From the sequence record CP025712.1: a DNA stretch of 46,701 nt, one strand, 5' to 3'. This DNA comes from Escherichia phage YDC107_1. The position numbers were made by a program, and so were the translations under genes. This document shows, in pieces, positions 12,188 to 41,193 of this stretch. The stretch's first letter is position 1; the number at the start of each line of letters is the position of its first letter. The notes under the pieces are model-generated. The model was not told the origin of the DNA. It ran no database searches and saw nothing but the letters and a program-made list of their open reading frames with translations.

Positions 12188-12881
12188 CCGGGACTGCAGT
12201 GTCTCCCGGACGTCATCCGGAAGATGGCTGTAGGGGTTGCCATCCACCTTATGGCTGCCGCTGTAAATCAGCGTGATTTCCACGCCCTGTTTCTCCAGCG
12301 CAGCACCGTAATTACTGTGAGCCATCATGACGCCGATGGAGCCTGTCCGGGCGGTCTGCGTGACCAGACGCCGGGAGGCGGCGCTGGCAAGCAGCTGACC
12401 TGCACTGCAGTTCATGTCGTTGGCCAGCGCCCATACAGGTTTTATGTCACGCACGCGGGCGATGATGTCAGCGCAGTCAAATGCCCCCGCCACCATCCCG
12501 CCGGGCGTGTCCATATCGAGCAGAATGCCGTCCACCATCGGGTCGCTGGCAGCCTGTTGCAGACGGGCGATAATGCCGTTGTAACCGGTCATCCCCGAAT
12601 ACGGCTGCAGCGCCCGCGTCCGGCTGACCAGCGTGCCGGAAACCGGCAGCACGGCGATGCCGTTCATGACCTGATAACTGCGGGCCTGTCGTGGTCCGTC
12701 ATCATCACCGGATAACGCCAGCGTCGCGGGTGCCTCCGGGGCAGTCAGGCTGTCACCGGACACCGCATCTGTCAGGCGGCTGATCCCAAGCTGGCCTGCA
12801 AGCGCACAAAAGAAAACCCGCGCATAGGCGGGTTCAAGCATCAGCGGCTCATTAAAGGCCATGCTGGCAATATGCGGGAGA

Positions 12882-12901
<20 letters not shown>
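11582..12901 (-). CDS. C: Capsid assembly protease C
   Basis: Lambda C-like from a GTG start (V)TAELRNLPHIASMAF, 439 aa; ClpP/S49-like fold. Confidence 0.88.
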
Positions 12902-16582
<3,681 letters not shown>

Positions 16583-20238: not shown

Positions 20239-21315
20239 TTACTCAAATAACTTTTTCACTTCATCAACTGTCTGAAGATAACGTTCACCCTCAATCTCAA
20301 TACCGATTGCCTGACGACCTAACTTCAGCGCGGCTTTAATAGTAGAGCCTGATCCCATAAAGAAATCGGCAACGATATCTCCGGGGCGGGAACTACTTTT
20401 TATAATATGTTCCATCATCGCTGCAGGTTTTTCACATGGGTGCTTGCCAGGATAATATTGCACAGGAGGAAACTCCCATACATCGGTATAAGGTACATCA
20501 GCAGTAACATGAAATGGGCGGCGCAAATTTTCATACTGAGCCTTCAAATCATCATACTGCTTCTTTACTTCCTCATAACGCAATTTCAGATCGCTATAAC
20601 GCTTTTCATGTTCTGAATAATCAACATTAAAAGGATATGGACACGGGACACCGAGTGAATCTGCCTTCCTGCGAAATAATTCGCATAGTTTATTAAAATC
20701 ACTTAATGATGGAAGCCGCCACTGCGAATAAGAAAACCAGTGCGAACACATCTGCTTTCCTGTTGCTGAATTAATGTCTGCGGCTGATATATCTAACTGA
20801 CGGCGAGCCAGCGAAAAAGCATCAATTAGTGGAGAAAAAATATTTTTTCTTAAATCTGCACATTTTGAAGCATAACCTGACTGACCTTTAGCATAACCTG
20901 ACGCGCCGTAATGCTCTGCAAATAATATTCTTTCAGTGGCAGGAAAATAAGCCCTTAAACTTTCTTTATGACAACCGCGCCACATACCACTGGGTTTAGC
21001 CCAAATGATATGGTTCAGAACATTGAAACGGTCGCGAGTTAATAATTCAATTTTTGACGCAAGGCGAGAGCCGGTAAACATATACAGGCTGCCATTAGGG
21101 GCCAATATCCGCCAAAATTCTGCCAAAAATTCATCAATCCACCCCAAAAAGTCAGCATCGCTATCCCACTGGTTATCCCATGCGTTAGCCTTTACGCCGA
21201 AGTATGGTGGGTCTGTTGCAATCAAATTGACCGAGTTATCAGGGATGGTTTTGATAAATTGCAGAGAATCTGCGCAAACGAGTTGCGCGCCATGAATATT
21301 AGTGGTTTTGAACAT
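20239..21315 (-). CDS. DNA methyltransferase (DPPY-type, N6-adenine or N4-cytosine)
   Basis: Motif IV LIATDPPYF near the N-terminus and motif I FFMGSGST near the C-terminus; likely start MFKTTNIHGAQ at 21315 (ORF-track start 21360). Confidence 0.8.
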   Translation of the reverse strand: MFKTTNIHGAQLVCADSLQFIKTIPDNSVNLIATDPPYFGVKANAWDNQWDSDADFLGWIDEFLAEFWRILAPNGSLYMFTGSRLASKIELLTRDRFNVLNHIIWAKPSGMWRGCHKESLRAYFPATERILFAEHYGASGYAKGQSGYASKCADLRKNIFSPLIDAFSLARRQLDISAADINSATGKQMCSHWFSYSQWRLPSLSDFNKLCELFRRKADSLGVPCPYPFNVDYSEHEKRYSDLKLRYEEVKKQYDDLKAQYENLRRPFHVTADVPYTDVWEFPPVQYYPGKHPCEKPAAMMEHIIKSSSRPGDIVADFFMGSGSTIKAALKLGRQAIGIEIEGERYLQTVDEVKKLFE

Positions 21316-21450
21316 AGCTATTATTTTTTTGCCTGGGTAAGCTAACCCGGCGATGCGCATCGCGGGTGGGCTTTAGGTTCAGCCTATAGCTCTGGCATGG
21401 GTTGACCGCAGGACAAGCTGCAACTTGTCCTGCGCCCACTTTTCAGGCAC

Positions 21451-21472
21451 AAAAAAACCGCCATAAAGGCGG
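21451..21472 (-). terminator. Rho-independent terminator on the late (minus) strand upstream of the methylase/lysis block, tR'-like position
   Basis: Minus-strand CCGCC-TTTAT-GGCGG followed by seven T. Confidence 0.5.
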
Positions 21473-21559
21473 CTTGTTGGCTGTTGGGTACAAAAAACCC
21501 AACTTAACAAAACAATAACTAAAAACCGTAATTTTGCCAAGCTTTTTCGTTTTTGTGCT

Positions 21560-21577
21560 GTGCGACCGTGGTCGCAC
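21560..21577. repeat. 18-bp palindrome GTGCGACCGTGGTCGCAC, copy 3 (opposite orientation of the central dinucleotide)
   Basis: Intergenic, in the late regulatory region. Confidence 0.6.
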
Positions 21578-21582
21578 AGTTT

Positions 21583-21810
21583 TTAGAAAGTTGCCTGCTT
21601 ATATTCATCGGTCAAAGAATATCGACCAGACCCGCTACGCTTTGCAACCCCAAAACAGATCATCTGTTCGATGATAAATTCAACGGCAGCTTGACTCAAA
21701 AAACAGGCTTCGCTTAACTCTTTCAGGGAAATGCGTGGGTATCCACGCATAACACATTCCACACTCAGGGCCGCTTCAGTCATATTTCCACGAATTTCAT
21801 TAATATTCAT
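21583..21810 (-). CDS. Hypothetical small protein
   Basis: 75-aa ORF just upstream of the terminator region; no family recognised. Confidence 0.45.
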   Translation of the reverse strand: MNINEIRGNMTEAALSVECVMRGYPRISLKELSEACFLSQAAVEFIIEQMICFGVAKRSGSGRYSLTDEYKQATF

Positions 21811-21823
21811 AACGCCTCTCTAA

Positions 21824-22063
21824 TCAATCTTGAAACTGGAAATCAACATCAGCCATAAAGCGGTTCAACTCAGCCAGTTTTGGCCCCATAGTCCCAACTA
21901 AGCGACCAGCCAGTCGGTCTGCCAGGTTGGTACTGTTGAAACCATATTCCTTTTCGAAACGTTCAACCTTCTGCCACAACTCATACAGTTCGTTAGCTAT
22001 CTCCGCAACGTCGTCGCGCATTTTTTCGTTACCTTGATAATTCATAATATCCTCCAAATTCAT
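21824..22063 (-). CDS. Hypothetical small protein
   Basis: 79-aa ORF; no family recognised. Confidence 0.45.
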   Translation of the reverse strand: MNLEDIMNYQGNEKMRDDVAEIANELYELWQKVERFEKEYGFNSTNLADRLAGRLVGTMGPKLAELNRFMADVDFQFQD

Positions 22064-22210
22064 ATAGTTAGTGGGTTATTGCCCCTCAATGACACGAACT
22101 GTAACTCTGCCAAACGAACACATCCAGTGTTATTTTTCACTTTTTAGTGAAATTTTTAATTTGCGCTTTTTTCTTGTTTTGGTGTATTTTATGGCTATGG
22201 AGGCTATAAT

Positions 22211-22522
22211 ATGTTTAACGTGATAACCCACCCTGCAGCACTGGATGAACTGCTTGAACTACCAGATGATTTGCGAGGTCGCATGACCAGATTAATTGAG
22301 CGACTGGAGAAGGAAGGCAACAAACTGAAGATGCCCCATAGCCGTGTAATAGGTGGAGGGCTTTTTGAACTACGAGTAGGGGATAAAAACATCGCAAGAA
22401 CGCTGTACGCCTACGCGACTGGTAACGAAATTTATCTATTGCATGCATTTGTAAAAAAGACACAGAAAACACCGGTGAAGGCTATCGAAATCGCCAGAAC
22501 TCGCCTGAAGGAGATGAACTGA
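22211..22522 (+). CDS. Type II toxin, HigB / Gp49-like (RelE/ParE superfamily)
   Basis: 103 aa with …GGGLFELRVGDKNIARTLYAYATGNEIYLLHAFVKKTQKTP… typical of Gp49/HigB; SD GGAGG; upstream palindrome TTTCACTTTTTAGTGAAA at 22135-22152 is a candidate operator. Confidence 0.8.
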   Translation: MFNVITHPAALDELLELPDDLRGRMTRLIERLEKEGNKLKMPHSRVIGGGLFELRVGDKNIARTLYAYATGNEIYLLHAFVKKTQKTPVKAIEIARTRLKEMN

Positions 22523-22809
22523 TGAAAGCGAAAGGCATCCCGTTTAACGAAGTAAAAGAAAAACTTCTCAACACTCCAGAAGCCATCAAAGGATATGAAG
22601 AGGCCGATAAAGAGCTGGAGATGGTCGAAATGTTATACGAAATGAGGGAAAGAGCAGGTTTAACGAAATCAGCTCTGGCTGAACGAATGGGGTTGCGACC
22701 GTCAGCCATCAGCCGCCTGGAAAGCAATCCTTTAGGGGCAAGTATGAAAACTTTGGCTAAATATGCTCATGCCTGCGGCGCAACCATCGATATTCGCGCT
22801 GTTTATTAA
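22522..22809 (+). CDS. HigA-like HTH (XRE family) antitoxin
   Basis: 95 aa, HTH LTKSALAERMGLRPSAISRLE; start overlaps toxin stop (ATGA). Confidence 0.8.
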   Translation: MKAKGIPFNEVKEKLLNTPEAIKGYEEADKELEMVEMLYEMRERAGLTKSALAERMGLRPSAISRLESNPLGASMKTLAKYAHACGATIDIRAVY

Positions 22810-22851
22810 TTAGACTCTTTTACTACCCCGTCCAGAAGGGCGGGGTGTGCA

Positions 22852-23055
22852 TCAATGATGTGAACGCTCAACAGCGATAGTTTTCTGACAATGCTGGGCA
22901 ATCTCTCGCGACATGTTGATGAGTCGTGAAACCTCACCAATATGTAGGCTGGCTTCTGGAGAAGCCAGGGTGACGCTAACCAGATCCAGAACGGCGTCAA
23001 TATCTCTCAAATTTGAATCGAGTTGTTCAAGAGTTGATACGGCTGCTTCAGACAT
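22852..23055 (-). CDS. Hypothetical small protein
   Basis: 67-aa ORF, weak RBS. Confidence 0.3.
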   Translation of the reverse strand: MSEAAVSTLEQLDSNLRDIDAVLDLVSVTLASPEASLHIGEVSRLINMSREIAQHCQKTIAVERSHH

Positions 23056-23137
23056 TAAATCTCATACCATTTAACTAAAAAAGGTTTTTTATACTGTATA
23101 AAATTACAGGATAAAACTCAAACTTTACGGTCAATTT

Positions 23138-23380
23138 TCAATGAATTAACTGCGTAAACTGCTGTGTGACCCGATACTTATGCTCTCTCCCTATGCCACG
23201 ATCAACTTTCTCAAGAAGTCCAGTACGGACAGCAGAATCAAGCATCCTTTTAACAATTCTGCTATTTAACCCAACATCAAAAGCAAGCATCGAAGCGAAA
23301 ACAAACCCATCACCACCATCAGAAAAGCTCTTTTCGCTCCGTTTTCGTATCATTTCAAAAAGCAATGCCTTTTTATCCAT
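23138..23380 (-). CDS. Hypothetical small protein
   Basis: 80-aa ORF; no family recognised. Confidence 0.45.
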   Translation of the reverse strand: MDKKALLFEMIRKRSEKSFSDGGDGFVFASMLAFDVGLNSRIVKRMLDSAVRTGLLEKVDRGIGREHKYRVTQQFTQLIH

Positions 23381-23398
23381 TTATCCCTCCGTGACCAG

Positions 23399-23725
23399 TC
23401 ACACTTTGAGCGCAAGTTTCAGCCTCGTGGTTGTAAGGTGGCATGACCCTTCGCCATCAAAAATGCATTCTGAAACAGGCATTTTTTGACCACATCGCGG
23501 GCAAGTAGTAGATAGCTGCTTCTGCAGCTCCTTATAGTTTTTCCTGATCAGCAAACCAATGACTTCGTTCTCCGAATATGGAACTCGCCCTGGTCTACGC
23601 AATACACAAATTTCCCCCAACATACGTAACTCGTCAGGTTCTAGAATCCAGTCCCGTCTTGATGTGCCTTCCTTCTTCAACCGTTCCCTGCGTCTCCTTT
23701 GCCGTTCTGCCGGTGTCAGCGCCAT
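23399..23725 (-). CDS. Hypothetical protein with C-terminal zinc-ribbon-like cysteines
   Basis: 108 aa; basic N-terminus; CPRCG…C…C. Confidence 0.45.
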   Translation of the reverse strand: MALTPAERQRRRRERLKKEGTSRRDWILEPDELRMLGEICVLRRPGRVPYSENEVIGLLIRKNYKELQKQLSTTCPRCGQKMPVSECIFDGEGSCHLTTTRLKLALKV

Positions 23726-23740
23726 AAATCCTCCTGAAAA

Positions 23741-24400
23741 TTACTTAACCCAACTAACTACACCGCCAGCGGCCACAACCGCCCTTTCACAATCACGCTC
23801 ATATCTCAAAGGTTGAAATACACCATCAATAAAATATTTATCTCCACCAAACGCTGCAGGAAGTGAAACAGAAAACTGAACATGACCATCCGGAGTTACC
23901 GGAGAGTTGCCAGCCTCATACGCGACCCTTATCCAGTGCATAAACATTTCAGTACTTACACATCCACAATCAACATCAATTTTGTCATGCTGCTGTTCCA
24001 GCCATTGCTCAAAAGTTAACTTGTAAGTTTGGCTTACAGGTTTGGCTTCCAGTTCTGCTACGCGCTGTTTTGCAGCATCCAGTTCAATCGACAATTTTTC
24101 CAACTGCTCTTTATGCTTCTTGTATTCCTGATATGCGTGCCAGGACTGACCTTTGCGCACACTATCAGTAATATCAGTAATCTGTTCTGGTGTTAGCGTG
24201 GTCAGTGGCTGTGCTGGGAAAATCAGCACTTTCCCGGAATCCCAATCAAAACCAGCGTGAATTGACTGAACCTCAACTGAGGGTGTTGAACCAATGCTGC
24301 CAGGCGAATGAATAACGATTGTTACATCCATATCGCGACGATGGCTGTGGTTGTTGGACAAAATACGATTCACCAACTCAGAAAATTTGGAAAATTTCAT
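23741..24400 (-). CDS. Hypothetical protein
   Basis: 219-aa ORF, translationally coupled to the next gene; no family recognised. Confidence 0.5.
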   Translation of the reverse strand: MKFSKFSELVNRILSNNHSHRRDMDVTIVIHSPGSIGSTPSVEVQSIHAGFDWDSGKVLIFPAQPLTTLTPEQITDITDSVRKGQSWHAYQEYKKHKEQLEKLSIELDAAKQRVAELEAKPVSQTYKLTFEQWLEQQHDKIDVDCGCVSTEMFMHWIRVAYEAGNSPVTPDGHVQFSVSLPAAFGGDKYFIDGVFQPLRYERDCERAVVAAGGVVSWVK

Positions 24401-24687
24401 GCTGATTCCCCTTTATCTGCTCTCTCCTGTCGGAACATCACTATCATCAGGTCGCCTTTTGTCGCTATCTTGGCTGTTGTGCCTGGCTCAATGCGGCTAA
24501 GTTCAAATGCGTCATAGAACGCCTCTAACACTTTCTGGCGTCTTTCCTGTTTGCGGTGCTTTCCCCACTGCTTTAGAAAAACAGAGGCCGCCCACTTCCC
24601 CGCACTGAACATGATGTAAAACCAACCGAGAAGTGCCAGACCGATATTTAGGGCCGTATCGATCGTTATCGTGGTGTCGATATTCAC
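24397..24687 (-). CDS. Hypothetical membrane protein
   Basis: 96 aa with one predicted TM segment LNIGLALLGWFYIMF. Confidence 0.45.
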   Translation of the reverse strand: MNIDTTITIDTALNIGLALLGWFYIMFSAGKWAASVFLKQWGKHRKQERRQKVLEAFYDAFELSRIEPGTTAKIATKGDLMIVMFRQERADKGESA

Positions 24688-25106
24688 TACGCCACCTCCT
24701 GTAAATTTCCCTGATAAAAAGCCAGCACACGCTGCATAACTTCACTTTTCCGGCAATCGTGACAAATCATGTTCAAGCGCCTGTCGTAACGACGTATTTC
24801 TCCGTCAGGTAATGACCAGATAAGGTCTGGATCAACCACTACCGATGTCTTCGGCTTTACTCTTGATAGTTTTTTACGGGCGTTTTGCCAGTCCTTGCGT
24901 GCTTGTGCAGACAGAAATATCCCGGAGCCAGAGATATACAAATCACCACTGGCAGCAAGCTCTCTTGATAAACGACTAACAGCACACCGGCTAATACCAG
25001 TTTCATCCGCAAGTTGCCTAACCGTTCCTCGTCCATTCAGGCGCACGAGTTCCACAATTTGTTTATTCAGTTCTTCCCTCTGTTCTGGTGTAAAAGCCTT
25101 TGCCAT
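24687..25106 (-). CDS. Putative HTH DNA-binding protein
   Basis: 139 aa; HTH-like RQLADETGISRCAVSRLSREL. Confidence 0.5.
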   Translation of the reverse strand: MAKAFTPEQREELNKQIVELVRLNGRGTVRQLADETGISRCAVSRLSRELAASGDLYISGSGIFLSAQARKDWQNARKKLSRVKPKTSVVVDPDLIWSLPDGEIRRYDRRLNMICHDCRKSEVMQRVLAFYQGNLQEVA

Positions 25107-25705
25107 TACGATTCTCCTTGCCCTTTTACAAGACGGGAGAAAATTGCGGATACATACTTAGCCTGATGAATAGCATCAGCCAGGGCATTGTGTCGTTCAC
25201 CATCAAATGGCATATCTTTTTTAGGATTGAAACCAATAAACTGACCAAGATTAACGATTGTTCGAACATCCTGATCATTAAAATATTCCCACGGACAGGC
25301 TAAGCCAACGCGCTCATAAGCACCGCGTAAAATTACATTGTCGAATGTTGCTCCATTTCCCCATACTTTCAATTTTTTTAAATTACATGCATGGCAAGTA
25401 ATAAAGTGTGATAATTCAAAAAGTGCATCCTTAATATTAAGGGCATCATTAGTACAAATTGCGGCTCTGGCTTCCTTGCTCTGTTTCAACCACCATAAAA
25501 TGGTATCACCATCGGCGACACCACCATTCAACATCGAGCTTCTGAGATTCACTGGCACATAAAAAGTAGGACCTAATTCCTCACCTTCTGGAGAAAAAAA
25601 CACTGCCCCGATAGAAACAATTGGAGCACATGTGTTAGTACCCATTGTTTCAAGGTCAATCATTACATCAGACCGTTTCCTGTCGTAAATAATCTGATTA
25701 GTCAC
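25106..25705 (-). CDS. DEDDh-type 3'-5' exonuclease (DnaQ-like)
   Basis: Exo I motif MIDLETMG and Exo III H-x4-D (HNALADA). Confidence 0.75.
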   Translation of the reverse strand: MTNQIIYDRKRSDVMIDLETMGTNTCAPIVSIGAVFFSPEGEELGPTFYVPVNLRSSMLNGGVADGDTILWWLKQSKEARAAICTNDALNIKDALFELSHFITCHACNLKKLKVWGNGATFDNVILRGAYERVGLACPWEYFNDQDVRTIVNLGQFIGFNPKKDMPFDGERHNALADAIHQAKYVSAIFSRLVKGQGES

Positions 25706-25728
25706 GAATAATTCTCCTCAACGTTTAT

Positions 25729-25932
25729 CTATACCCAAATTTTCTGTTGATATGTTCTGGATGGTTTTGGTGTTCTTTCTGATTCAGGTAAATGAACATA
25801 AACGCAATATCCATCACCTAAAAAATCAGAACGAACAACCAGAACTTTCTTACCACGCCGCCGATAAGTATCTGAAAGACGCTCTGCTTCATCATGCGTC
25901 ATCGGCCCCTGTTTAAATGGCGTTATTTTCAT
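25729..25932 (-). CDS. Hypothetical small protein
   Basis: Starts at MKITPFKQGPM; the ORF-track start at 25956 is a GTG inside the palindrome. Confidence 0.35.
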   Translation of the reverse strand: MKITPFKQGPMTHDEAERLSDTYRRRGKKVLVVRSDFLGDGYCVYVHLPESERTPKPSRTYQQKIWV

Positions 25933-26233
25933 TTTCTTGTGCGACCACGGTCGCACCCTCTCTGATTTCCAAGTAACGCTTAATCCAAAGATTTTCTATA
26001 TGCTTATTACCTGGCTGATTTGATAAATACCAATCGGCAATTACAGACTGCTTATTACTATCTGGTCGTGTCCTGTAACCACAAGTTGGACACCAAATAA
26101 CATATTCATTTCTTACCCCCGAATACCTTAATTCTGGCTTCGACGGTTTCCTGAACATAACTTGTTTACAAAGGCAGAATGGCACTTCCTGCCCGATGGC
26201 GTTTGATGATTTCACTGCGCTTCTCCGCCGCAT
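25913..26233 (-). CDS. Hypothetical protein with CxxC zinc-ribbon motif
   Basis: 106-aa ORF with CPTCG; start uncertain. Confidence 0.4.
   Translation of the reverse strand: MRRRSAVKSSNAIGQEVPFCLCKQVMFRKPSKPELRYSGVRNEYVIWCPTCGYRTRPDSNKQSVIADWYLSNQPGNKHIENLWIKRYLEIREGATVVAQENENNAI
25939..25956. repeat. 18-bp palindrome GTGCGACCACGGTCGCAC, copy 4
   Basis: At the junction of two small early genes. Confidence 0.6.
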
Positions 26234-26876
26234 TTAATAATGCGGTTCGATTTAAGCTCAGACATCGCGACTTAATTAAAAGCCAGCGTTCTTTATAATC
26301 TTGTCTCCAGCTATCAATAGATATATTCAGTAGAAAACTCAGATGCCTGTCCTGTTCTCTCTCATCAACTGCCTCAGCACACGTAAGTTCTGATTTAACC
26401 TGTTGTGCCGCGTAATAAATCAATTTCCGCATGGCTTTTTTCGTGGAGGCCTTCATTTTTTTAAAGCCGCCCCCCGAATGAGCAACCAGAAAATCAAGCC
26501 ATAACCACTGACAAACAATCACATCATTGTTGTAATCAGGCTTGCATCCGTAGCAATAATAAAGCCAGGCTGATTCCTCGTTATTCAACTGACCAATAGC
26601 CCTGCGCCAGCTGGCGCTCTGAAAATCAATATCAGTGAGCAACATTGATGATTGTTTAAATGTTTTCCCCTGATGGAATCTAACCGGCTCAGCAGGAACG
26701 GACACTTCGTATGAGTTATCATCCCCCACACTGATTGACCGGACTGGTTTATTGTTAAACCGTCCTGATCTACCGAGACGCATCTGCTCAAGCTGGACCT
26801 CCAGAATGCCACGCTGGCGATAATGAACATCAGCCAATGCCGTAGAGACGCAGCTGCGTATATACTCAAGCTCCAC
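26166..26876 (-). CDS. Hypothetical early protein directly downstream of cro (regulator or Q-like candidate)
   Basis: 236 aa from a GTG start with SD AAGGAG; contains CYGC…C cysteines; family not recognised. Confidence 0.5.
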   Translation of the reverse strand: MELEYIRSCVSTALADVHYRQRGILEVQLEQMRLGRSGRFNNKPVRSISVGDDNSYEVSVPAEPVRFHQGKTFKQSSMLLTDIDFQSASWRRAIGQLNNEESAWLYYCYGCKPDYNNDVIVCQWLWLDFLVAHSGGGFKKMKASTKKAMRKLIYYAAQQVKSELTCAEAVDEREQDRHLSFLLNISIDSWRQDYKERWLLIKSRCLSLNRTALLNAAEKRSEIIKRHRAGSAILPL

Positions 26877-27087
26877 GCTTACGACTCTCCTTAATCGACT
26901 GCTTTACCCGCCGAGTTGTAAAGTCACTCTTCAGCTTATAAGCAGTACGAACTTCAATATCGCTTTGCCGCAATGAAGGAATCTCTCCAGCGGTTAACCA
27001 TTGGTAAACAGCTCCGGGTGTTACACCTACCCCTGCCGCTGCTTTTTCTACACTGCCAAAATGGCGAATAAGTTCTTCTGGTTTCAT
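26866..27087 (-). CDS. cro: Cro-like HTH repressor
   Basis: 73 aa from MKPEELIRHFGSVEKAAAGVGVTPGAVYQWL; divergent from the repressor gene. Confidence 0.7.
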   Translation of the reverse strand: MKPEELIRHFGSVEKAAAGVGVTPGAVYQWLTAGEIPSLRQSDIEVRTAYKLKSDFTTRRVKQSIKESRKRGA

Positions 27088-27118
27088 GTTGTTATTATAA
27101 ACAATAAACAACAATTAA

Positions 27119-27156
27119 AGCCAGCTATAATAAATAAATTTTATAGCCAGCTATAA
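27119..27156. promoter_or_regulatory. Operator region between cro and cB: two AGCCAGCTATAA repeats
   Basis: Repeats at 27119-27130 and 27145-27156; the second lies in the near-palindrome TTATAGCCAGCTATAA; AT-rich promoter context. Confidence 0.5.
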
Positions 27157-27178
27157 GAAGATCATTTATGATTACAGT

Positions 27179-27775
27179 ATGAAAACACGAGGCGAACGAC
27201 TGAAAGCACGCCGTTTAGAGATGAAGCTGACGTTGCGAGAAGTTGCTGAGGCTGTCGATATCTCTATAGCAGGCGTCCAAAACTTAGAACGTGGCGACGT
27301 AATGCCGTCACTGGAGATAGGTATTGCCCTGGCTAAGTGCTTACGCAAGCCAGTGCATTGGGTGCTATATGGGACAGAATATGACCCTGATCGCATTCCT
27401 GTTATTGGCACAACTGAAAGTGGGCCGGATGAAGAGTGGAAGCCGGGACAGGTTCCAAATACTGAGCGATTCCTGCCATTCATCAGCCAGCGCAATACTG
27501 TGTATGCGTTAACTATCAGCAATCTTACGCAGGGAAACTATCAGCCAGGCGATTTTCTCCTGGTCGATTCTGCGCTGGAACTGGTCCCCGGCGAGGATGT
27601 TCTGGTTCGTGATACTGCAGGAAATATCACTATCCAGCGCCTGGCCCGTTTTGATGATGAAAATTACTATCTGGATGGAACAAACTCACAACGCGCCATC
27701 TTCAGGAAAAGCGATCTTGAATTTGTTCACCAAATAGTCGGAACGATCAAATCATTCATGGTTGAGGGTAGATGA
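27179..27775 (+). CDS. cB: Prophage repressor (N15 CB / lambda CI analogue): HTH plus degenerate LexA-like C-terminal domain
   Basis: 198 aa; N-terminal HTH LTLREVAEAVDISIAGVQNLERG. Confidence 0.8.
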   Translation: MKTRGERLKARRLEMKLTLREVAEAVDISIAGVQNLERGDVMPSLEIGIALAKCLRKPVHWVLYGTEYDPDRIPVIGTTESGPDEEWKPGQVPNTERFLPFISQRNTVYALTISNLTQGNYQPGDFLLVDSALELVPGEDVLVRDTAGNITIQRLARFDDENYYLDGTNSQRAIFRKSDLEFVHQIVGTIKSFMVEGR

Positions 27776-27869
27776 CTTAATACGGGGTTTATTGTTTGCT
27801 GTAAATCTGGTTTAATGCAGGGCATATGTTCTGTGGGTTGACTCAGGTTACAGCAGCAGAAAAAAGACG

Positions 27870-27905
27870 AAAAAAAACCCGAGTCGGCAAACTCGGGTCC
27901 TTTTC
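27870..27905. terminator. Bidirectional rho-independent terminator after the repressor gene
   Basis: A-run, CCCGAGT-CGGCAAA-ACTCGGG, then T-run. Confidence 0.5.
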
Positions 27906-28020
27906 AGGAAGCAGCCACAACAACGCGACAGATTCCGTCAATTCAAGATGCGTTTATTGTGGCTGCTCCTGCGGATTTTTTCAACCCGAAAAAACATAAT
28001 TCGCATGGAATGGCTAAAAA

Positions 28021-31000
28021 ATGACATTAAACGATTTCTATGCGGATCGCTTTGGCAGCGATCCGTTCTCGCTAATTGAAGCAGCACGGGATGAACTAAC
28101 CGAGCTGGCACAGATGGCTGGTATCAACTGGCCTGCCTGTTCCGACAACATCCAACTCAACCCTCGCGGGGGGGTTGAGCGTTACTCTTCATACAATAAA
28201 ACATCTCCAGAAGCTCTCGAAAAGAGCCTGAAAGGACGCGTAGAAATTTACTCCAGGCTGGAACACAGCAAAGGGATTGATTACCCGTTCATTAACTTCG
28301 TCCATAAAGGCAGCGATGCTGGCTCATGGAGCGGTTTCTCCTTCCTGTTTTCTGAATATCGCCGTGAGCAACAACGGAATAATGCGACCGTGGTCGCACA
28401 ACCGGAAGAAGAACGGGAAAGAATAGAACGTCAGGCCGAAGCACGTCGTCGCCGTGAAGAACAAAAACGAATTAATGACCTGAAAAACAACCAAATGGAC
28501 CATGAACGTTTGCTGGGATGGCTGGCATTCCACAGCGCGTGGGAACATGCTCAGGCTGAAGACGGCTCATGGCCATATGCGATTAAAAAAGGTATTCGTG
28601 ACGTTTTTAGTTCATGTGATGTGCGTCGCGTGACCAGTCACGACAGTGCGAAATGGAGCCGGGGGCCAACCACATATATGGCTATCCCTCTGGCTCACCT
28701 GGACGGTCGTTATGATGGTCGTATTGTGGGTTGGCAGCGAATCGACAAACAAGGTGGGAAATACCAGACCAGCGCAGTAACCAGCGGCGATTTCGTCGGT
28801 GCCTGCTTTGTTATCGGTGAGCTGAAAGGGGCGCAAAACATCGCTGTTACAGAAGGTTTTGCTACTGGTGCATCCATCTGGCTTGCCACGAAAAAAGATA
28901 AACGCTTTGACGCGGTGGTTGTCGCTGTATCCGCTAACAACATGGTTCATGTTGTGGAACAACTGGTAAACATGTACCCGGCGGCAAAAATCACCTGCGC
29001 ACTGGATAATGACCGGAAATCTGCCACAGAAGGAAAAGGGAATACCGGCCTGCGGACTGGCTATGAAATCTTATCGAAATTCAACGATGTCCGCTGCGTC
29101 TACCCAACTTTTGAAGACGATCCGCAAATGGAGTGCAGTGACTTCAACGACCTGCACAAACTACGTGGACTTCGTGAAACAGCACGTCAACTATTTGCAA
29201 CAGCAAACCGCCTGAAAACCGGCACTGATTTGCTATCTCTGACGCTCAACCGCCTGAAGACAATTAAGCGGGATAACCGTCGTACTTTTGCCAAAGAGCT
29301 GCTGAGAGCGGTGGATATTGGCATGCTAACCTGTCCGGTTCCTAACAGTCCGTCAGATTTGTTTAACATGTTCTGTATCGTTCTGCGTGAAATGGGGCTG
29401 GAAAATATCTATCGCGCTACGGTAAAAGACCACATTGCCCGTCGCCTGAATAAAAAATGCCGTATTGCCCAGGCTCCGCGCTCTTTCAGCGAACGCATAA
29501 CTGATCCCAATAAACGCCCTCAACATATCACCTATAAGCGTTTTGAAACTTCGGTAATGACCTATGACGTCCTGAAGTACGTGCAATCACTACAGGGGAT
29601 CGTCATCGTTCGTGCTGGTATGGGTTCCGGCAAATCTACTGGATTGTTACGACCGTTAATGCATAGCTCAGAACGCGGTATCTCTGTAGCTCACCGTGTT
29701 TCCCTTATTGGTGGCCTGTGGGAAATGATGACTGAAGGAAAAGGTGTAAAAGCCGATATCCTGCACTATCAGGACCCTGGCTATCAGGAAATGGCTCCAT
29801 ACGCCAGTAAACTGACCATCTGCATAAACTCGATTGTTAAAAACTGCTGGCAACCGTTGATGCGCCAGCACGACTATTTTGGCTTTGACGAGGCCACACA
29901 AGGGCTACGTGCCGTTCTTTCCGGTCGGGCTATGGAAAACCCAGTGGCTGTATTCAATACGCTAATTGACGCGCTGGCCAGAACGGAACAACACCCAATA
30001 ATGGTGGATGCTGATGCGAACGATCTGCTGGTTGACCTGGCTGAACTGGCTATGAAACGCCGTGAAGAACTAGGTTTACCGGCATGGCTGCAGATCCACG
30101 TAATTGAATTACCTGTTGATGTTCGCAACCGCGAAACAGGTGAGCCAATCCGGGTTTTTTATACAGAAAAAGATCGCATCATGACCGAGGTGGTGAAAGC
30201 TGTATCGGATGGCGAAAAAATCATGTTGGCCACCGACAGCTCCACCTTTGCAGAAGATGTGACCGCCACCCTGAGAATGCATTTTCCTGGTAAGAAATTT
30301 CTGTGCGTAAACCAGAAAAGCAAACAGGATGAAGAAGTCGATGCTTTTACCAACCAGCCAAAAGTAATGGTGATGAAATACGATGGACTGATCTACAGCC
30401 CGTCGATTTCCTCCGGGGTGTCATTTGAGAAAAAACATTTTGACCGTCATTTCGGCATGTTCTGCGGTGAAGTTGTGCCCAGCGACGCAGTGCAAATGCT
30501 ACGCCGCGACCGTACAGCAAAAGAATTTATTATCGGCTTTGATAAAGCTCGTGCAAAACGCGAGACTGATCCGCAAAAAATAGAACGTGCATTCGCCCAG
30601 GCATTACTTGCTACCGCAGGCATGAACGGTGAACTGACGGATGTCGTTTTCGATGGCGACCGTATATCAATGGGGGTGGCCAATACCGACTTTACCAGGA
30701 TGAAAATTAAAGCTGCCGCTATTGAAGCGTCTGCGCGTAACGACTACGCCAGCAACATGATCTGCATCATGCACAGCGACGGTTATAAGGTATCGCCATT
30801 AGCTACTGATTATGCCGCAAATGATTTTGGTAAAGAGCTGCGCAAAGAAGCGCGGGATATTGTGTGGGAACAGACGCTGGATCTGCACCTCAATACAGAG
30901 ACACCAGAAGAATCAGAGCGTGAAGAACTACTAAAAAAACGTGCGCTAACGCTTGAAGAACAGGCAAAACTTGTCCGCTGGGATATTGAGAACGAACTGA

Positions 31001-32004
31001 AACTACCGGTTGAAGAAGGCACGCTGAAATTCTATTTCGATGGTGCTCGAGACAAAATTCGCCGTTATGAAACGATGCTGCTTGATGAAGTCACAGCCCG
31101 TCGTTATGACCGTGAAGAAGCGGCTATCAATTTTACATACGCATACCGCCAGACCGGACAGTGGCAATATTTTGTGGTGACCGCGATGACACGCGAGCAG
31201 GCTGATGATGTATTCAAAGCGAAATTTCCGGGAATAATCGACTACAAGGTAAAAGCCACCCCAGCTGTTGAGGTCGGCATGCGCGGATTCTATGCGCTTA
31301 AATCAGCAACTCTCCGGCAGTATTTTATCGACTGCGGTATCGACCCTGAAACTATGACTGGCGAAGCGACGCAGGAACGCCTTAAGTTCGCTCGAGATAA
31401 TCTCATGACAGCAGAACGCCGTGACCTGTTGAATAACGTTCTGCGCATTGGTGGTTTTATGACACCAAAAGGGAAGCCTAAAGTGCCGGAAGCACTGTTT
31501 AAAAACATCTGCGACTCTCTCGGCCTAAAAACAGGAAAACGTCGCGGCAGAGATGGCGATAAGCGCCCGACATTGCGTTTTGTTGAGCCTGAGTCTGTAG
31601 CATTTATGCTTGATATTCTTACGCAACGTCAGGAGGACGGTATGACGTTGAAAGCTCGCAAGGCAGAAAAATCAACGACCGAAGTGGATCGCGATTTGTC
31701 ATTAAATATATATATGAATGGTGAAACGCGATCCACAAACACGGAGGAACAGGATCCCCCTCGTTCAGCTATATCACAGGCTTTGGCTGTATTGCCGGTG
31801 GCTGTTCCTGAGTCCTGGGCGATGAGTGCTCTGCCATCAGCCGAACTGGAATCTATCAGGGGGTGGTCAGTTGACAGCATCGCATACACGTTTGCAGCCC
31901 TTTATATGACTGAGTTTATGGATTTGCTGTCCGGTCATGAGATTAAGTTGCTGAAGGCTTTTATAGGCCCACGACATGCCAGCGATGAGTTTTGTGTAGT
32001 TTAG
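28021..32004 (+). CDS. repA: Replication protein: Toprim primase fused to a helicase/NTPase (N15 RepA / P4 alpha-like)
   Basis: 1327 aa; Toprim motifs (VTEGFATGASIW, ALDNDRKSATEGKG); Walker A GMGSGKST; Walker B-like FDEATQ. Confidence 0.9.
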   Translation: MTLNDFYADRFGSDPFSLIEAARDELTELAQMAGINWPACSDNIQLNPRGGVERYSSYNKTSPEALEKSLKGRVEIYSRLEHSKGIDYPFINFVHKGSDAGSWSGFSFLFSEYRREQQRNNATVVAQPEEERERIERQAEARRRREEQKRINDLKNNQMDHERLLGWLAFHSAWEHAQAEDGSWPYAIKKGIRDVFSSCDVRRVTSHDSAKWSRGPTTYMAIPLAHLDGRYDGRIVGWQRIDKQGGKYQTSAVTSGDFVGACFVIGELKGAQNIAVTEGFATGASIWLATKKDKRFDAVVVAVSANNMVHVVEQLVNMYPAAKITCALDNDRKSATEGKGNTGLRTGYEILSKFNDVRCVYPTFEDDPQMECSDFNDLHKLRGLRETARQLFATANRLKTGTDLLSLTLNRLKTIKRDNRRTFAKELLRAVDIGMLTCPVPNSPSDLFNMFCIVLREMGLENIYRATVKDHIARRLNKKCRIAQAPRSFSERITDPNKRPQHITYKRFETSVMTYDVLKYVQSLQGIVIVRAGMGSGKSTGLLRPLMHSSERGISVAHRVSLIGGLWEMMTEGKGVKADILHYQDPGYQEMAPYASKLTICINSIVKNCWQPLMRQHDYFGFDEATQGLRAVLSGRAMENPVAVFNTLIDALARTEQHPIMVDADANDLLVDLAELAMKRREELGLPAWLQIHVIELPVDVRNRETGEPIRVFYTEKDRIMTEVVKAVSDGEKIMLATDSSTFAEDVTATLRMHFPGKKFLCVNQKSKQDEEVDAFTNQPKVMVMKYDGLIYSPSISSGVSFEKKHFDRHFGMFCGEVVPSDAVQMLRRDRTAKEFIIGFDKARAKRETDPQKIERAFAQALLATAGMNGELTDVVFDGDRISMGVANTDFTRMKIKAAAIEASARNDYASNMICIMHSDGYKVSPLATDYAANDFGKELRKEARDIVWEQTLDLHLNTETPEESEREELLKKRALTLEEQAKLVRWDIENELKLPVEEGTLKFYFDGARDKIRRYETMLLDEVTARRYDREEAAINFTYAYRQTGQWQYFVVTAMTREQADDVFKAKFPGIIDYKVKATPAVEVGMRGFYALKSATLRQYFIDCGIDPETMTGEATQERLKFARDNLMTAERRDLLNNVLRIGGFMTPKGKPKVPEALFKNICDSLGLKTGKRRGRDGDKRPTLRFVEPESVAFMLDILTQRQEDGMTLKARKAEKSTTEVDRDLSLNIYMNGETRSTNTEEQDPPRSAISQALAVLPVAVPESWAMSALPSAELESIRGWSVDSIAYTFAALYMTEFMDLLSGHEIKLLKAFIGPRHASDEFCVV
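28383..28398. repeat. 16-bp core TGCGACCGTGGTCGCA, copy 5, inside repA
   Basis: Outer bases not complementary (16 of 18); mirrored copy at 45080-45097. Confidence 0.5.
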
Positions 32005-32021
32005 AGGGTAGAAGCGTGGGA

Positions 32022-32288
32022 ATGATGCAAGAGTGCCTCGTTTTGATTGAAGGGTATGATCCGTATGTTGTTAACGTCAGCAGAATGGATACTGGCTATA
32101 GCGACTACAAAACTGGTCGTGAACTGCCGTTCACCATCATCAGGATGAATAGCTTTGGCGATGATGATGCTGTTTATTGCTGTATAGCCAGCGATAAAAA
32201 CATGGAAGACCGGACAGATGAAGCCCGTATGCTATTGAGGAAATATAAGGTAAAGCCGTTATCAGAGAATAACGCTGAGAGGGGTTAA
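32022..32288 (+). CDS. Hypothetical protein
   Basis: From ATG MMQECLVLIEGYDP (ORF-track start 31992 is TTG). Confidence 0.45.
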   Translation: MMQECLVLIEGYDPYVVNVSRMDTGYSDYKTGRELPFTIIRMNSFGDDDAVYCCIASDKNMEDRTDEARMLLRKYKVKPLSENNAERG

Positions 32289-32290
32289 AA

Positions 32291-32686
32291 ATGGCAGTTC
32301 AATCATACAAATACGAATCCCCTTTGGATAAGGGATACATTCGTATCAAGTTAAGTCGTTCTCAGCATAAGGCTATTTTTAAGGTAAGGAAAATTCGCAT
32401 ATTGGATGCGTATGCGTATTACTACAACGGTGAAAATGTTGTTGTTGAACACTTTCTTGCACGATGGTTTGTAGCTCTGATTTTTGTCCCTCTCCTGTTA
32501 ATTGGTACTTTTGTGGATGGTTTTCCTAGTACATGGCGGGAGATAAAGAAAGGCCTATTCCCGCGTAAGTACGGCAGATTTTCGCAAGATAGCTGGCGAG
32601 TTATACCTGGTAAACATTCTGTGGATGAGCAGCCGATTGTTGATTACTGGTTGAAGCATATGGCTGATGCTAAAAAAGTTGATTGA
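32291..32686 (+). CDS. Hypothetical membrane protein
   Basis: 131 aa with SD GAGAGGGG; TM segment WFVALIFVPLLLIGTFV. Confidence 0.5.
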   Translation: MAVQSYKYESPLDKGYIRIKLSRSQHKAIFKVRKIRILDAYAYYYNGENVVVEHFLARWFVALIFVPLLLIGTFVDGFPSTWREIKKGLFPRKYGRFSQDSWRVIPGKHSVDEQPIVDYWLKHMADAKKVD

Positions 32687-32704
32687 GTTGTGGAAGGAGT
32701 ATTT

Positions 32705-32929
32705 ATGAACTGTAACAAAAATGAAGAAACTCGCCTGGTTTGGACGGTAGTAATCGGAGATAAAGAGGGCGGTGAAGAGCCTCATTTTGATTATTCTGTG
32801 GCTTTGCAGGCTCTCATCCTTGAAGCGCAGAGATACCAACAAGAGATGCAGAAGAACCCTCAACTGGAACCTCGACCAATTGGCCTATTCTGCGAGCGAG
32901 TATCAGCGGCGGAACTCCCTGATATCTGA
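32705..32929 (+). CDS. Hypothetical small acidic protein
   Basis: MNCNKNEETRLVWTVVIG…; SD GGAAGGA. Confidence 0.45.
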   Translation: MNCNKNEETRLVWTVVIGDKEGGEEPHFDYSVALQALILEAQRYQQEMQKNPQLEPRPIGLFCERVSAAELPDI

Positions 32930-33120
32930 TGCCCTCCAACAGCTGATCAGGTTCTGATCAGTTAGTAAAGCAAACTATAAAAACACCTGTCCCCGTGACT
33001 GGTCACGGGGTAAAATGTCTTTGCAAATTATTGACGTGTGCGTCGTTTTGACGGTAAAGTTACTTCGCTGCGGTAAATCCCGTAGCCGGGACTCTCAACC
33101 CCGAAATCCGAACGACGCAC

Positions 33121-33143
33121 AACACGCGCCAGCGTGTTTTTTT
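33121..33143 (+). terminator. Rho-independent terminator ending a short untranslated transcript upstream of the anti-repressor operon
   Basis: AACACGC-GCCA-GCGTGTT followed by a T-run. Confidence 0.45.
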
Positions 33144-33309
33144 GTGTGTATGAGCCTGCGCATATCCGAATTATGGTGGCTCAGGTGGGGCAGCCGAAAG
33201 GCTGGCCGGTGTCGTTTGGGCCGGTGTTGAGAACCCCGCTTGGGCTACCACCCCATAGAGATTCTCAACTCTGGTGGTAGCACTGTTTTACCAAACAAGA
33301 GTGCATACC

Positions 33310-33474
33310 ATGTTCAAATTCAAATTTGCGGCAGTCGTTCGCACAGACAAAAAGTCACACATCCATCATCTTTCCACCATCGCGTCATCTGAACGGGAAG
33401 CTCGTCGCCAGTTCGCCAGCCGGTTTGTCCTGGTATTGTCTGCCCGTATTCCGGTGCGCGAGGTGGCTGCATGA
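33310..33474 (+). CDS. Small protein, first gene of the anti-repressor operon (Icd-like position)
   Basis: 54 aa from MFKFKFAAVVRTDKK. Confidence 0.35.
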   Translation: MFKFKFAAVVRTDKKSHIHHLSTIASSEREARRQFASRFVLVLSARIPVREVAA

Positions 33475-33704
33475 ATCAGGTAAAAATGAACACTGTTGGC
33501 CTGCTGGAATCGTTGGATGAACGTCTGGCTCAGGTCTATGCGCTTGTGTCATCAGCCCATCGTACAGTCTCCAGTTGTGAGGCGTCGATTTATCTCTCAG
33601 AAGCCGGGAAGCTCCTTCAAATCGCGTGTGAGTTGACACACAAAGCACAGGGGTATTCAGCATCTCTCTCGTCGCAATTGCAGCACAATAAGGAGGCCAA
33701 ATGA
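33471..33704 (+). CDS. Hypothetical protein (anti-repressor operon)
   Basis: 77 aa, SD GAGGTGG, ATGA-coupled to neighbours. Confidence 0.45.
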   Translation: MNQVKMNTVGLLESLDERLAQVYALVSSAHRTVSSCEASIYLSEAGKLLQIACELTHKAQGYSASLSSQLQHNKEAK

Positions 33705-34477
33705 GCGCGTTAGCTGTATTTTCGTTTCAGGAAGAGCATCAGGTTCGTGTAGTGATGATTGATAGCGATCCGTGGTTTGTTGCATCTGATGTGTGTATGG
33801 CGGCGGGTATTGATTCTACGGCCATTAGAAAGTTGGATGAGGACGAAAAGGGTCTGCATTTAATGCAGACCCCTGGCGGATACCAGAATGTTTCAATCAT
33901 CAAGGAGTCAGGTCTATACACCCTAATCCTCCGCTGCCGTGACGCGGTGAAGCAAGGCACAACAGCTTGGCGGTTTCGCAAATGGGTAACGAACGAAGTC
34001 TTGCCCTCTATTCGCAAAAATGGAGAGTACGTTTACGTTGAGCCAGAGCCAATGCGAGCAGCAGAGCCGTTGAACTGGAGGCAGAAAGAGTATCTGCGAG
34101 GGCTGATTAACGATATTGCACAAAGTTTTCAATACCGAAATGCCTGGATTAGCGGTGTATGGTTGGCTTTGCGTCGGGCGTGTCGTAATCCATCCCCGAA
34201 CCCCATAACTGTTGATGATTTGCCAGCAATAACGGCAGAACTGCGACGGATTTTGACGGCTGCTGAGTCGGCATTGGGGAACATGCGCACGTATGAACGA
34301 GAGTTGTTGCGTGATGTTGTTCGTGGTGGTAGGCGGAGTATGTCGTGTGGTGATTTGCCCATCACCGATATCAACTCTGATCTGGAAAAGGCGTTACCCG
34401 CGCATTTTGAACTGGCAGTTCAAAAACTTGAGCAGTTGTCCGCGCAGCTAAAGCCAGCAGAAATCACCAATAAATAG
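33701..34477 (+). CDS. ant: Anti-repressor with Bro-N domain
   Basis: 258 aa; N-terminus FSFQEEHQVRVVMIDSDPWFVASDVCMAAGI… typical of Bro-N/Ant; SD AGGAGG. Confidence 0.75.
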   Translation: MSALAVFSFQEEHQVRVVMIDSDPWFVASDVCMAAGIDSTAIRKLDEDEKGLHLMQTPGGYQNVSIIKESGLYTLILRCRDAVKQGTTAWRFRKWVTNEVLPSIRKNGEYVYVEPEPMRAAEPLNWRQKEYLRGLINDIAQSFQYRNAWISGVWLALRRACRNPSPNPITVDDLPAITAELRRILTAAESALGNMRTYERELLRDVVRGGRRSMSCGDLPITDINSDLEKALPAHFELAVQKLEQLSAQLKPAEITNK

Positions 34478-34649
34478 GGTTGGCCAGCCCGAATTGATGC
34501 CCTTCTTAGTGAGGGGAAGCCTCGCAGTCTGGGCGGTGATGTCTGTGGTTGCAGCCGCGTTTCCTCCGTTACTTCTGCCCTTTGCAGGGGGCAGGCGAGG
34601 CAGGCCACATAACAAGGCACCGATTAATTCGGTGCCTTTAACGTATGCT

Positions 34650-36551: not shown

Positions 36552-36714
36552 CTTTCCTCTCCTGATTATCCGCTCGGATTATCGTAACACAATTTGAGAA
36601 TAAGATAACTAATAACGCGTTAACTTAGGCACAAACTAACAGAACACAATAACGGATAATAAATAAAAACACAATATCGGAACGTTAAAATTTGTTCCTT
36701 GACTTTGTTCTGAA

Positions 36715-36770
36715 AATCAGCACATAATTTCCCATTATACGCGCGTATAATGGGAAATTATGTGCTGATT
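36715..36770. other. telRL-like telomere resolution site; centre of dyad symmetry between 36742 and 36743
   Basis: AATCAGCACATAATTT-CCCATTATACGCGCGTATAATGGG-AAATTATGTGCTGATT, same architecture as N15 telRL as I recall. Confidence 0.8.
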
Positions 36771-36933
36771 TTCAGAACAAAGTCAAGGAACAAATTTTAA
36801 CGTTCCGATATTGTGTTTTTATTTATTATCCGTTATTGTGTTCTGTTAGTTTGTGCCTAAGTTAACGCGTTATTAGTTATCTTATTCTCAAATTGTGTTA
36901 CGATAATCCGAGCGGATAATCAGGAGAGGAAAG

Positions 36934-38833: not shown

Positions 38834-39005
38834 AGCATACGTTAAAGGCACCGAATTAATCGGTGCCTTGTTATGTGGCCTGCCTCGCCTGCCCCCTGCA
38901 AAGGGCAGAAGTAACGGAGGAAACGCGGCTGCAACCACAGACATCACCGCCCAGACTGCGAGGCTTCCCCTCACTAAGAAGGGCATCAATTCGGGCTGGC
39001 CAACC

Positions 39006-39782: not shown

Positions 39783-40012
39783 TTGGCCTCCTTATTGTGC
39801 TGCAATTGCGACGAGAGAGATGCTGAATACCCCTGTGCTTTGTGTGTCAACTCACACGCGATTTGAAGGAGCTTCCCGGCTTCTGAGAGATAAATCGACG
39901 CCTCACAACTGGAGACTGTACGATGGGCTGATGACACAAGCGCATAGACCTGAGCCAGACGTTCATCCAACGATTCCAGCAGGCCAACAGTGTTCATTTT
40001 TACCTGATTCAT
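39779..40012 (-). CDS. Mirror copy of the 77-aa anti-repressor-operon gene
   Basis: Identical translation to 33471..33704. Confidence 0.4.
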   Translation of the reverse strand: MNQVKMNTVGLLESLDERLAQVYALVSSAHRTVSSCEASIYLSEAGKLLQIACELTHKAQGYSASLSSQLQHNKEAK

Positions 40013-41191: not shown

Positions 41192-41193
41192 TT

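Follow-up and report, generated by a model that had tools for sequence, protein, structure and literature searches.

A probable accessory early region of an N15-type linear phage-plasmid of Escherichia coli and its exonuclease slot

In phage lambda, the nin region lies between the genes P and Q. Genes 40-47 of N15 and their counterparts in phiKO2 and PY54 have the same position and gene order as the block of small genes described here, with a DEDDh exonuclease gene after a small open reading frame (ORF). We analyzed this block, positions 23138-26233 of Escherichia phage YDC107_1 (record CP025712.1), in a stretch of 46,701 nucleotides (nt) that is referred to as the window. From the letters alone, an earlier reading (the original prediction) had placed here an early operon of small proteins, sitting where lambda has its nin genes and ending in an exonuclease. 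We consider it likely that the block forms the accessory, promoter-distal half of a repressor-controlled early operon, made up of cro, Q and the block, of an N15-type phage-plasmid. The type of phage is a known one, the gene families are catalogued and mostly uncharacterised, with nothing new in kind, and near-identical copies of the block have already been deposited.

Gene content and the swapped cassette

To judge from the genes around the block, the element is an N15-type linear telomere phage-plasmid of E. coli, since RepA, a CB/cI repressor, cro and Q are its neighbors:

28021-32004: RepA, 1327 amino acids (aa), which marks an N15-type telomere phage-plasmid
27179-27775: LexA-family CB/cI repressor, a marker of an N15-type element
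26866-27114, minus strand: cro, the first gene of the operon
26166-26876, minus strand: Q-type antiterminator (PF06323, E = 4e-84), 67% identical to N15 gp40 and directly upstream of the block

The region from 22800 to 27200 was 99% identical from end to end to Escherichia phage PhiR46_1 (PV340565, host ECOR13) and 95 to 99% identical to 17 RefSeq linear E. coli plasmids, most of about 46 kilobases (kb). The block itself is filled by eight packed, partly overlapping minus-strand ORFs; packing, overlap and strand were thus as originally described, and the number given there, nine or so, was one too high. In order of transcription these are:

25913-26233, minus strand: zinc-ribbon gene with four cysteines, 106 aa (PHROG 6795, E = 1.5e-45)
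25729-25956, minus strand: small PHROG 1212 gene, 75 aa (PHROG E = 1.8e-25, residues 9-74)
25106-25705, minus strand: DEDDh exonuclease, 199 aa (PF16473, E = 7.4e-68)
24687-25106, minus strand: DUF977 winged-helix protein, 139 aa (PF06163, E = 3.7e-29)
24397-24687, minus strand: DUF4752 protein, 96 aa, with one hydrophobic helix (PF15944, E = 1.3e-38)
23741-24400, minus strand: modular protein of 219 aa (PHROGs 6026 and 368)
23399-23725, minus strand: Cys-rich homologue of N15 gp46, 108 aa, 79% identical to gp46 (PHROG 536, E = 4.7e-32)
23138-23380, minus strand: homologue of N15 gp47, 80 aa, 68% identical, the last gene of the block (PHROG 13995, E = 1.9e-47)

The zinc-ribbon, helix-turn-helix (HTH), small membrane and 219-aa proteins that had been picked out by eye are thus all there. 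The exonuclease, which had been taken for the end of the operon, is third in transcription order and is followed by five block genes, and the operon begins upstream of the block, at cro and Q. Nor are the genes unassignable, as had been supposed: the profile searches that the original prediction proposed gave PHROG family matches for eight out of eight (E from 1.8e-25 to 5.2e-81; PHROGs 6795, 1212, 142, 6026, 368, 536 and 13995), with Pfam matches to PF16473, DUF977 and DUF4752. None of the eight is a well-characterised nin-region protein, and Pfam, PHROG and NCBIfam scans of the block detected no families of the NinB, NinG or RusA type. Rfam gave no RNA family within the block, and eight ORFs on the opposite strand or in alternative frames were dropped as genes because they had no family matches.

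We compared 43 sequences, comprising the window, N15, phiKO2, PY54, 38 IMG/VR loci and one genome locus. Their common order was cro, Q, zinc ribbon, small ORF, exonuclease, variable genes, gp46, gp47, an antC-like gene, a toxin-antitoxin pair, gp50, gp51 and the late promoter, and this synteny agrees with the original assignment to an early operon and makes it that of an N15-like phage. A DEDDh exonuclease was present in the region in 42 of the 43, belonging to PF16473 in the window lineage and PY54 and to RNase_T in N15, phiKO2 and others. The closer comparison with N15, also proposed originally, showed conserved flanks and a replaced middle: the flanking proteins (cro to the small ORF, and gp46 to gp51) were 54 to 81% identical to those of N15, and blastn of the window against N15 aligned only 25896-27400 and 20250-23725, at 73%, with breakpoints of DNA homology at 25895/25896 and 23725/23726. 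Because DNA homology is found only outside these breakpoints, the stretch between them is a swapped cassette:

23726-25895, minus strand: swapped cassette without N15 DNA homology, holding the diverged 67-75-aa gene, the exonuclease, DUF977, DUF4752 and the 219-aa gene

These alignments showed two layers. The backbone, found in all N15-like phages, consists of the Q-overlapping zinc ribbon, the 67-aa gene, a slot for a predicted DEDDh exonuclease and the putative small DNA-binding proteins related to gp46 and gp47. The second layer is the swapped cassette of 2.2 kb, with genes for a predicted DexA/Rv2179c-type exonuclease, DUF977, DUF4752 and an Ea22/DUF551-like protein. At the position of the cassette, N15 has gp41-gp45.1; its exonuclease there, gp41, is a fusion of RNase_T and Lar domains and not of the PF16473/DexA type, and gp42-45.1 stand where the window has DUF977, DUF4752 and the Ea22/DUF551-like protein. 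Other gene sets again occupy this position in phiKO2 and PY54.

By their sequence relationships, the cassette families DUF977, DUF4752 and Ea22/DUF551-like also occur in lambdoid and P1-like prophages. The DUF4752 gene and the first half of the 219-aa gene were 92 to 96% identical in nucleotide sequence to P1-like phages and phage-plasmids, and the DUF977-DUF4752 segment was approximately 92% identical to a chromosomal lambdoid prophage, where it has the replication genes on one side and RusA on the other, a nin-like region. The DUF977, DUF4752 and DUF551 genes are those shared with this nin-like region, and in content the originally proposed nin analogy is half right. It does not apply to position, as the block, like N15 genes 41-47, comes after Q and before the late promoter and terminator at 21540-21455. 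Plasmids that are otherwise near-identical vary here, the 219-aa gene being replaced by a DUF551 gene and others and DUF4752 being absent from some, as expected for dispensable cargo.

The exonuclease, the zinc ribbon and the other block proteins

The 199-aa protein is a predicted 3'-5' exonuclease of the DEDDh type, of the Rv2179c-like/T4 DexA family. It matched PF16473 with 228 bits (Pfam cut-off, 27) over profile positions 2-176 of 177. The Exo I and Exo III motifs noticed originally are present (D17 and E19, and H180 and D185, respectively), together with D122 of Exo II, and D17, E19, D122 and H180 were invariant in an alignment with T4 DexA and N15 gp41. T4 DexA (structure 8KEL, E = 1.4e-7) was the only solved relative found by sequence. 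The gene starts at GTG 25705, with a GAGGAG Shine-Dalgarno motif; PGAP instead calls ATG 25663, giving 185 aa. Homologues were found in 699 phage records, and the one in Salmonella phage ST64B adjoins xis and int, with an Ead/Ea22-like gene near.

Searching the literature on Rv2179c in phages and on phage DEDDh enzymes in defence yielded nothing relevant except one paper on DexA and HREX (PMC12153337). In that study, EcD ('HREX'), an E. coli homologue of DexA, guards against T4 even at leaky expression, the defensive DexA type is defined by loss of the tetramerisation aspartate D90 of DexA, and 5-hydroxymethylcytosine (5hmC) is recognized by DexA W152 and D169. The block's exonuclease retains the aspartate, with D93 aligned to DexA D90 by both HMMER and MAFFT. 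At the W152 and D169 columns MAFFT places F and F, in a half of the protein that aligns poorly and in which the HMMER alignment has ended (residue 126). We also considered whether the protein is EcD itself and rejected this, since the published EcD primers encode a protein starting with MIDTET and ending with HS.

The zinc-ribbon gene encodes cysteines C20, C22, C48 and C51, and its CLC and CPxC motifs are invariant in distant relatives. Its start is probably GTG 26215, giving 100 aa, because GGAG lies 7 nt upstream and the upstream ATG is ACG in phiKO2. The gene overlaps the 3' end of Q by 50 to 68 nt (50 nt with the GTG 26215 start) and its product is 79% identical to that of an N15 ORF without annotation. 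It is unannotated in PV340565, in the N15 record NC_001901 and in the RefSeq PGAP plasmids, and annotated in PY54 only. The N15 record also leaves the counterparts of the 75-aa ORF and of the antC-like ORF unannotated; the unannotated N15 ORFs lie at 11654-12158 and 15593-15832 of the compared N15 sequence. The 75-aa ORF itself probably starts at ATG 25932 and encodes 67 aa: residue 9 is the first that the PHROG profile matches, the GTG farther upstream is just the opening triplet of a centromere palindrome (see below), and PGAP calls the 67-aa version. It is 54% identical to the unannotated N15 ORF and stands directly 5' of the exonuclease in most N15-like loci.

PHROG 6795 labels the zinc ribbon 'Lar-like' restriction alleviation. 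The protein scored below the curated Lar cut-offs (PF14354, 21.1 vs 28.6 bits; TIGR03655, 19 vs 39.6 bits), and among 24 representatives of its family two matched a Lar model at E<0.01 and none passed the cut-off. When eight family members were compared with Lar domains (N15 gp41-type and PY54 ORF52) by hhalign, the probability was 1.6% over 10 columns. Full-library phmmer recovered the family as 27 clusters among 1.84 billion representatives, and a scan of genome contigs found it at one locus. Membership in Lar was therefore rejected by hhalign, by the Pfam scan of representatives and by full-library phmmer, and we regard the zinc ribbon as a separate, narrow zinc-ribbon family. It does resemble Lar of the Rac prophage (PF14354/TIGR03655) in being a small four-cysteine ribbon in which a conserved Trp comes after a CPxCG knuckle, and in early expression from a temperate phage, but the first knuckle is CLC here and CPFC in Lar.

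Bona fide Lar domains do occur in this region of the relatives. N15 gp41 (12161-13075) is an RNase_T exonuclease fused to a Lar_restr_allev domain (E = 2e-12), and PY54 (7043-7979) has a PF16473 exonuclease, ORF51, followed by a separate Lar-type ORF52 that matches the gp41 C terminus (E = 6e-25). Exonuclease and Lar-type domains have therefore been linked repeatedly in the region, and the fused and split arrangements hint that Lar-type ribbons may work with DEDDh exonucleases. No bona fide Lar domain was found beside the exonuclease in the block.

For the DUF977 protein, AlphaFold2 gave a confident winged helix over residues 7-81 (predicted local distance difference test [pLDDT] 83-92 at residues 11-70) and a poor C-terminal part, which fits the HTH protein foreseen originally. 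Foldseek of this model against PDB returned generic IclR, MarR and DtxR winged helices, none at E<=0.001. All of its 745 homologues are named DUF977, and PHROG 142 carries the label 'Ren-like exclusion protein'. The hydrophobic helix of the DUF4752 protein is N-terminal, at about residues 12-38.

The 219-aa protein has 1684 homologues, and its exact sequence occurs on 713 contigs. PHROG 6026 covers residues 1-113 and other PHROGs 128-219, with weak coiled-coil or scaffold matches at 69-136. In relatives, the similarity runs through residues 1-182 and gives way to a DUF551 domain, which accounts for the NCBI name DUF551; the C-terminal part is divergent here. Pfam and NCBIfam gave no match above threshold, NCBIfam gave no ead/Ea22 match, and no PDB sequence matched at E<=0.1 (best E = 0.18, an unrelated hypothetical protein). 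The 'Ea22' label of PV340565 was rejected (BLASTP against lambda Ea22, E = 0.36). The gp46-like protein has a basic N-terminal helix and a C-terminal cluster of invariant cysteines (C75, C78, C87 and C95), and its PHROG 536 is labeled 'transcriptional regulator'; its AlphaFold2 model, built with 11 homologues, was unusable (pLDDT 52). The gp47-like protein gave weak winged-helix-type Pfam matches only and is a putative small winged-helix protein.

Operon signals, boundaries and a predicted SopB site

A minus-strand scan from cro (27114) to 23138 found no sigma-70-like promoter and no convincing terminator; the only terminator-like match was weak and lay inside the exonuclease ORF. Strong Shine-Dalgarno motifs precede most starts in the block, and coupled junctions are present at TAATG (exonuclease/DUF977), TAGTG (DUF977/DUF4752) and ATGA (DUF4752/219-aa gene). 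Beyond the block, the following features were recorded:

23094-23109: perfect LexA box CTGTATAAAATTACAG (CTGT-N8-ACAG), overlapping a promoter-like TTGAGT-17-TACAGT
22852-23055, minus strand: AntC/AntA-like anti-repressor gene, 67 aa, following the LexA box and with it marking where the block ends downstream
22211-22809, plus strand: RelE/ParE-type toxin (103 aa) and HTH antitoxin (95 aa), a RelE/HigA-type pair homologous to N15 gp49/gp48
21540-21512: promoter-like TTGGCA-17-TATTGT, where the N15 and phiKO2 records annotate the late promoter
21475-21455: intrinsic terminator after the promoter-like element, upstream of methylase and lysis genes

The antC-like gene is 56% identical to an N15 ORF between genes 47 and 48 that has the same LexA box, and 42% identical to antA, annotated as anti-repressor in the PY54 record. 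PMC4488713 cites an SOS-regulated AntC of N15. On the strength of the homology, the LexA box and this citation, the 67-aa gene at 22852-23055 is probably the SOS-regulated AntC anti-repressor. The toxin-antitoxin pair is convergent with the block, and a GC-rich stem-loop at about 22815-22845 separates the two units. Farther downstream, 21455-21577 is arranged like lambda pR'-tR', with a SopB site, a promoter and a terminator, and this promoter/terminator is likely the target of Q. By analogy with N15, we place the block in an early operon under the control of the CB repressor, between Q and its presumed target. A 2025 survey of telomere phages does not mention the region of the block.

The block also contains a match to a known centromere element, which the original prediction did not mention:

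25939-25956: SopB centromere-type 18-bp palindrome GTGCGACC-NN-GGTCGCAC, an exact match and the equivalent of N15 IR2

It reads GTGCGACCGTGGTCGCAC on the coding (minus) strand and falls within two ORFs, at the 3' end of the zinc-ribbon one and at the 5' end of the one that follows. The window holds six copies of GTGCGACC-NN-GGTCGCAC, at 18300, 18520, 21560, 25939, 28382 and 45080, against 0.01 expected. Besides the copy in the block, one lies just upstream of the late promoter (21560-21577), one lies in repA and is mirrored by another, and the remaining two are at 18.3-18.5 kb. The palindrome was at the identical position in 35 of 35 sequences of the N15, phiKO2 and window types, with the central dinucleotide alone varying, and was absent from the PY54-like relatives. 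A matching palindrome is annotated as partition site in the phiKO2 record, and the N15 IR2 oligonucleotide listed in Table 4 of PMC7205306 is a functional SopB centromere site. We therefore predict that 25939-25956 corresponds to the N15 IR2 SopB site.

The last approximately 9.96 kb of the window (36743-46701) are an inverted copy of 26776-36742, with the center of the palindrome at 36742/36743, about 190 nt upstream of the telN start. The copy is 100% complementary except at a few single-nucleotide indels and over one stretch of 302 nt, where the figure is 98%. This palindrome is either assembler read-through of a hairpin telomere or the junction of a head-to-head replicative dimer. It doubles cro, cI, repA, the anti-repressor region and telN, and the second copies of repA and telN are frameshifted. 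The small-gene block is located in the unique part. Rfam reported C4 antisense RNA and isrK twice each with equal scores, at 33067-33255 (plus strand) and 40228-40416 (minus strand); as these are mirror images across the palindrome, they are really one locus, a P1 c4-like anti-repressor control region.

Possible functions and comparison with known systems

If the block is the distal half of the early operon, as we think likely, DNA damage would lift LexA off the neighboring antC-like gene, the anti-repressor would then inactivate the CB repressor, and transcription from the cro promoter would pass Q and then all eight block genes, which would be translated as a coupled chain. By analogy with DexA, the exonuclease, the one enzyme of the block, could act early in lytic growth, trimming or degrading DNA with 3' ends that belongs to the host or to rival elements. 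The other small proteins would most likely be dispensable and would modulate host physiology and the choice between lysis and lysogeny, a choice in which exo-xis genes of lambda and Stx (Shiga toxin) phages act (PMC7093339, PMC10834534). Several points weigh against this interpretation. The likeness to DexA is confined to the N-terminal 114 residues of the exonuclease, with an overall identity of about 24%, and Rv2179c, the founder of the PF16473 family, is a ribonuclease (RNase); the substrate could therefore be RNA. Nearly every relative keeps an exonuclease in this slot, which would not be expected if this gene, at least, were simply dispensable cargo, and the 219-aa protein has no similarity to Ea22, so that transferring the pro-lysogenic role of Ea22 to it is weak. 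More generally, the functions proposed for the block genes are drawn from sequence and analogy, and the operon structure was deduced from scans for consensus signals and from the N15 analogy.

Other roles can be proposed for the same genes, among them the anti-defence and recombination functions raised originally. The block could be an anti-restriction or anti-defence module, in which the zinc ribbon would act against type I restriction in the manner of Lar or Ral and the exonuclease would cooperate or destroy a defence signal or nucleic acid, so that the DNA of the phage would be shielded soon after entry or induction. The 'Lar-like' label and the weak Pfam and TIGRFAM Lar matches point this way, as do the exonuclease/Lar links in N15 gp41 and PY54 ORF51/52 and the presumably early expression of the genes, but we judge it unlikely: the tiny zinc-ribbon family fell short in each Lar comparison described above, the window's exonuclease has no bona fide Lar domain beside it, PADLOC reported nothing significant and no match to a known anti-defence protein was found. 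It is quite unlikely, in our view, that the block is a replication and recombination helper set, a functional analogue of lambda nin/red in which the exonuclease would process 3' ends, assisted by the small DNA-binding proteins, when the linear hairpin plasmid turns to lytic replication or in recombination. Such a role would fit an exonuclease that is kept in 42 of 43 N15-like sequences despite swapping of its family, the DnaQ-like (RNase_T) enzyme in N15 and phiKO2, an RdgC-like gene in the same region of PY54 and its relatives, and the presence of DUF977 and DUF4752 in nin-like regions of lambdoid prophages. It fits poorly with the lack of any annealing protein, resolvase, NinB/NinG or RusA in the Pfam and PHROG scans of the block, with the free variation of the cassette 3' of the exonuclease between near-identical plasmids, and with the minimal N15 replicon, for which repA alone suffices.

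Least probable, and in our opinion very doubtful, is a role in lysogen defence or superinfection exclusion, in which an HREX-like enzyme would attack the hydroxymethylcytosine DNA of T-even phages and DUF977 and DUF4752 would add exclusion functions. EcD protects from T4 (PMC12153337) and shares a broad family with the 199-aa protein, and the 'Ren-like exclusion protein' label of PHROG 142 would also agree with such a role. EcD is, however, a different protein, and PADLOC gave no match for the block. HREX-type defence is unlikely because D93 is retained, because the 5hmC positions, which fall in the poorly aligned half, do not appear to be conserved, and because the block lies in a repressed lytic operon without a promoter of its own in the scan. 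We return, then, to the accessory half of the early operon as the preferred interpretation. Its practical value is limited, the sole lead of some value being the conserved, family-swapping exonuclease slot with its zinc-ribbon neighbors. As a tentative and rather improbable extension, this exonuclease might be a selected, near-universal early function of N15-type telomere phages, replaced non-orthologously and forming a Lar-ribbon-linked anti-restriction module or a nuclease module for competition between phages, not random cargo. If it truly were an anti-defence or exclusion factor, a family spread over several hundred phage records would join the catalogue of defence and counter-defence systems. 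Two further conserved genes, for the zinc ribbon that overlaps Q and for the 67-aa protein, are left unannotated or truncated in the records of N15, PhiR46_1 and RefSeq that were compared.

Among described enzymes, T4 DexA and Rv2179c belong to the same DEDDh fold family as the exonuclease of the block, in which the catalytic residues are all kept; T4 DexA has extra loops that are absent here. Genes of the DUF977, DUF4752 and Ea22/DUF551 types and PF16473 exonucleases are typical cargo of the exo-xis and nin-type regions of lambdoid and Stx phages and of P1-like phage-plasmids (D6, Ro157c2YLVW), and the accessory early region of N15-like elements exchanges cassettes with lambdoid and P1-like prophages. 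The setting differs: in the exo-xis and nin regions these genes lie between exo and xis or between P and Q, whereas in the window they lie downstream of Q in a linear plasmid-phage.

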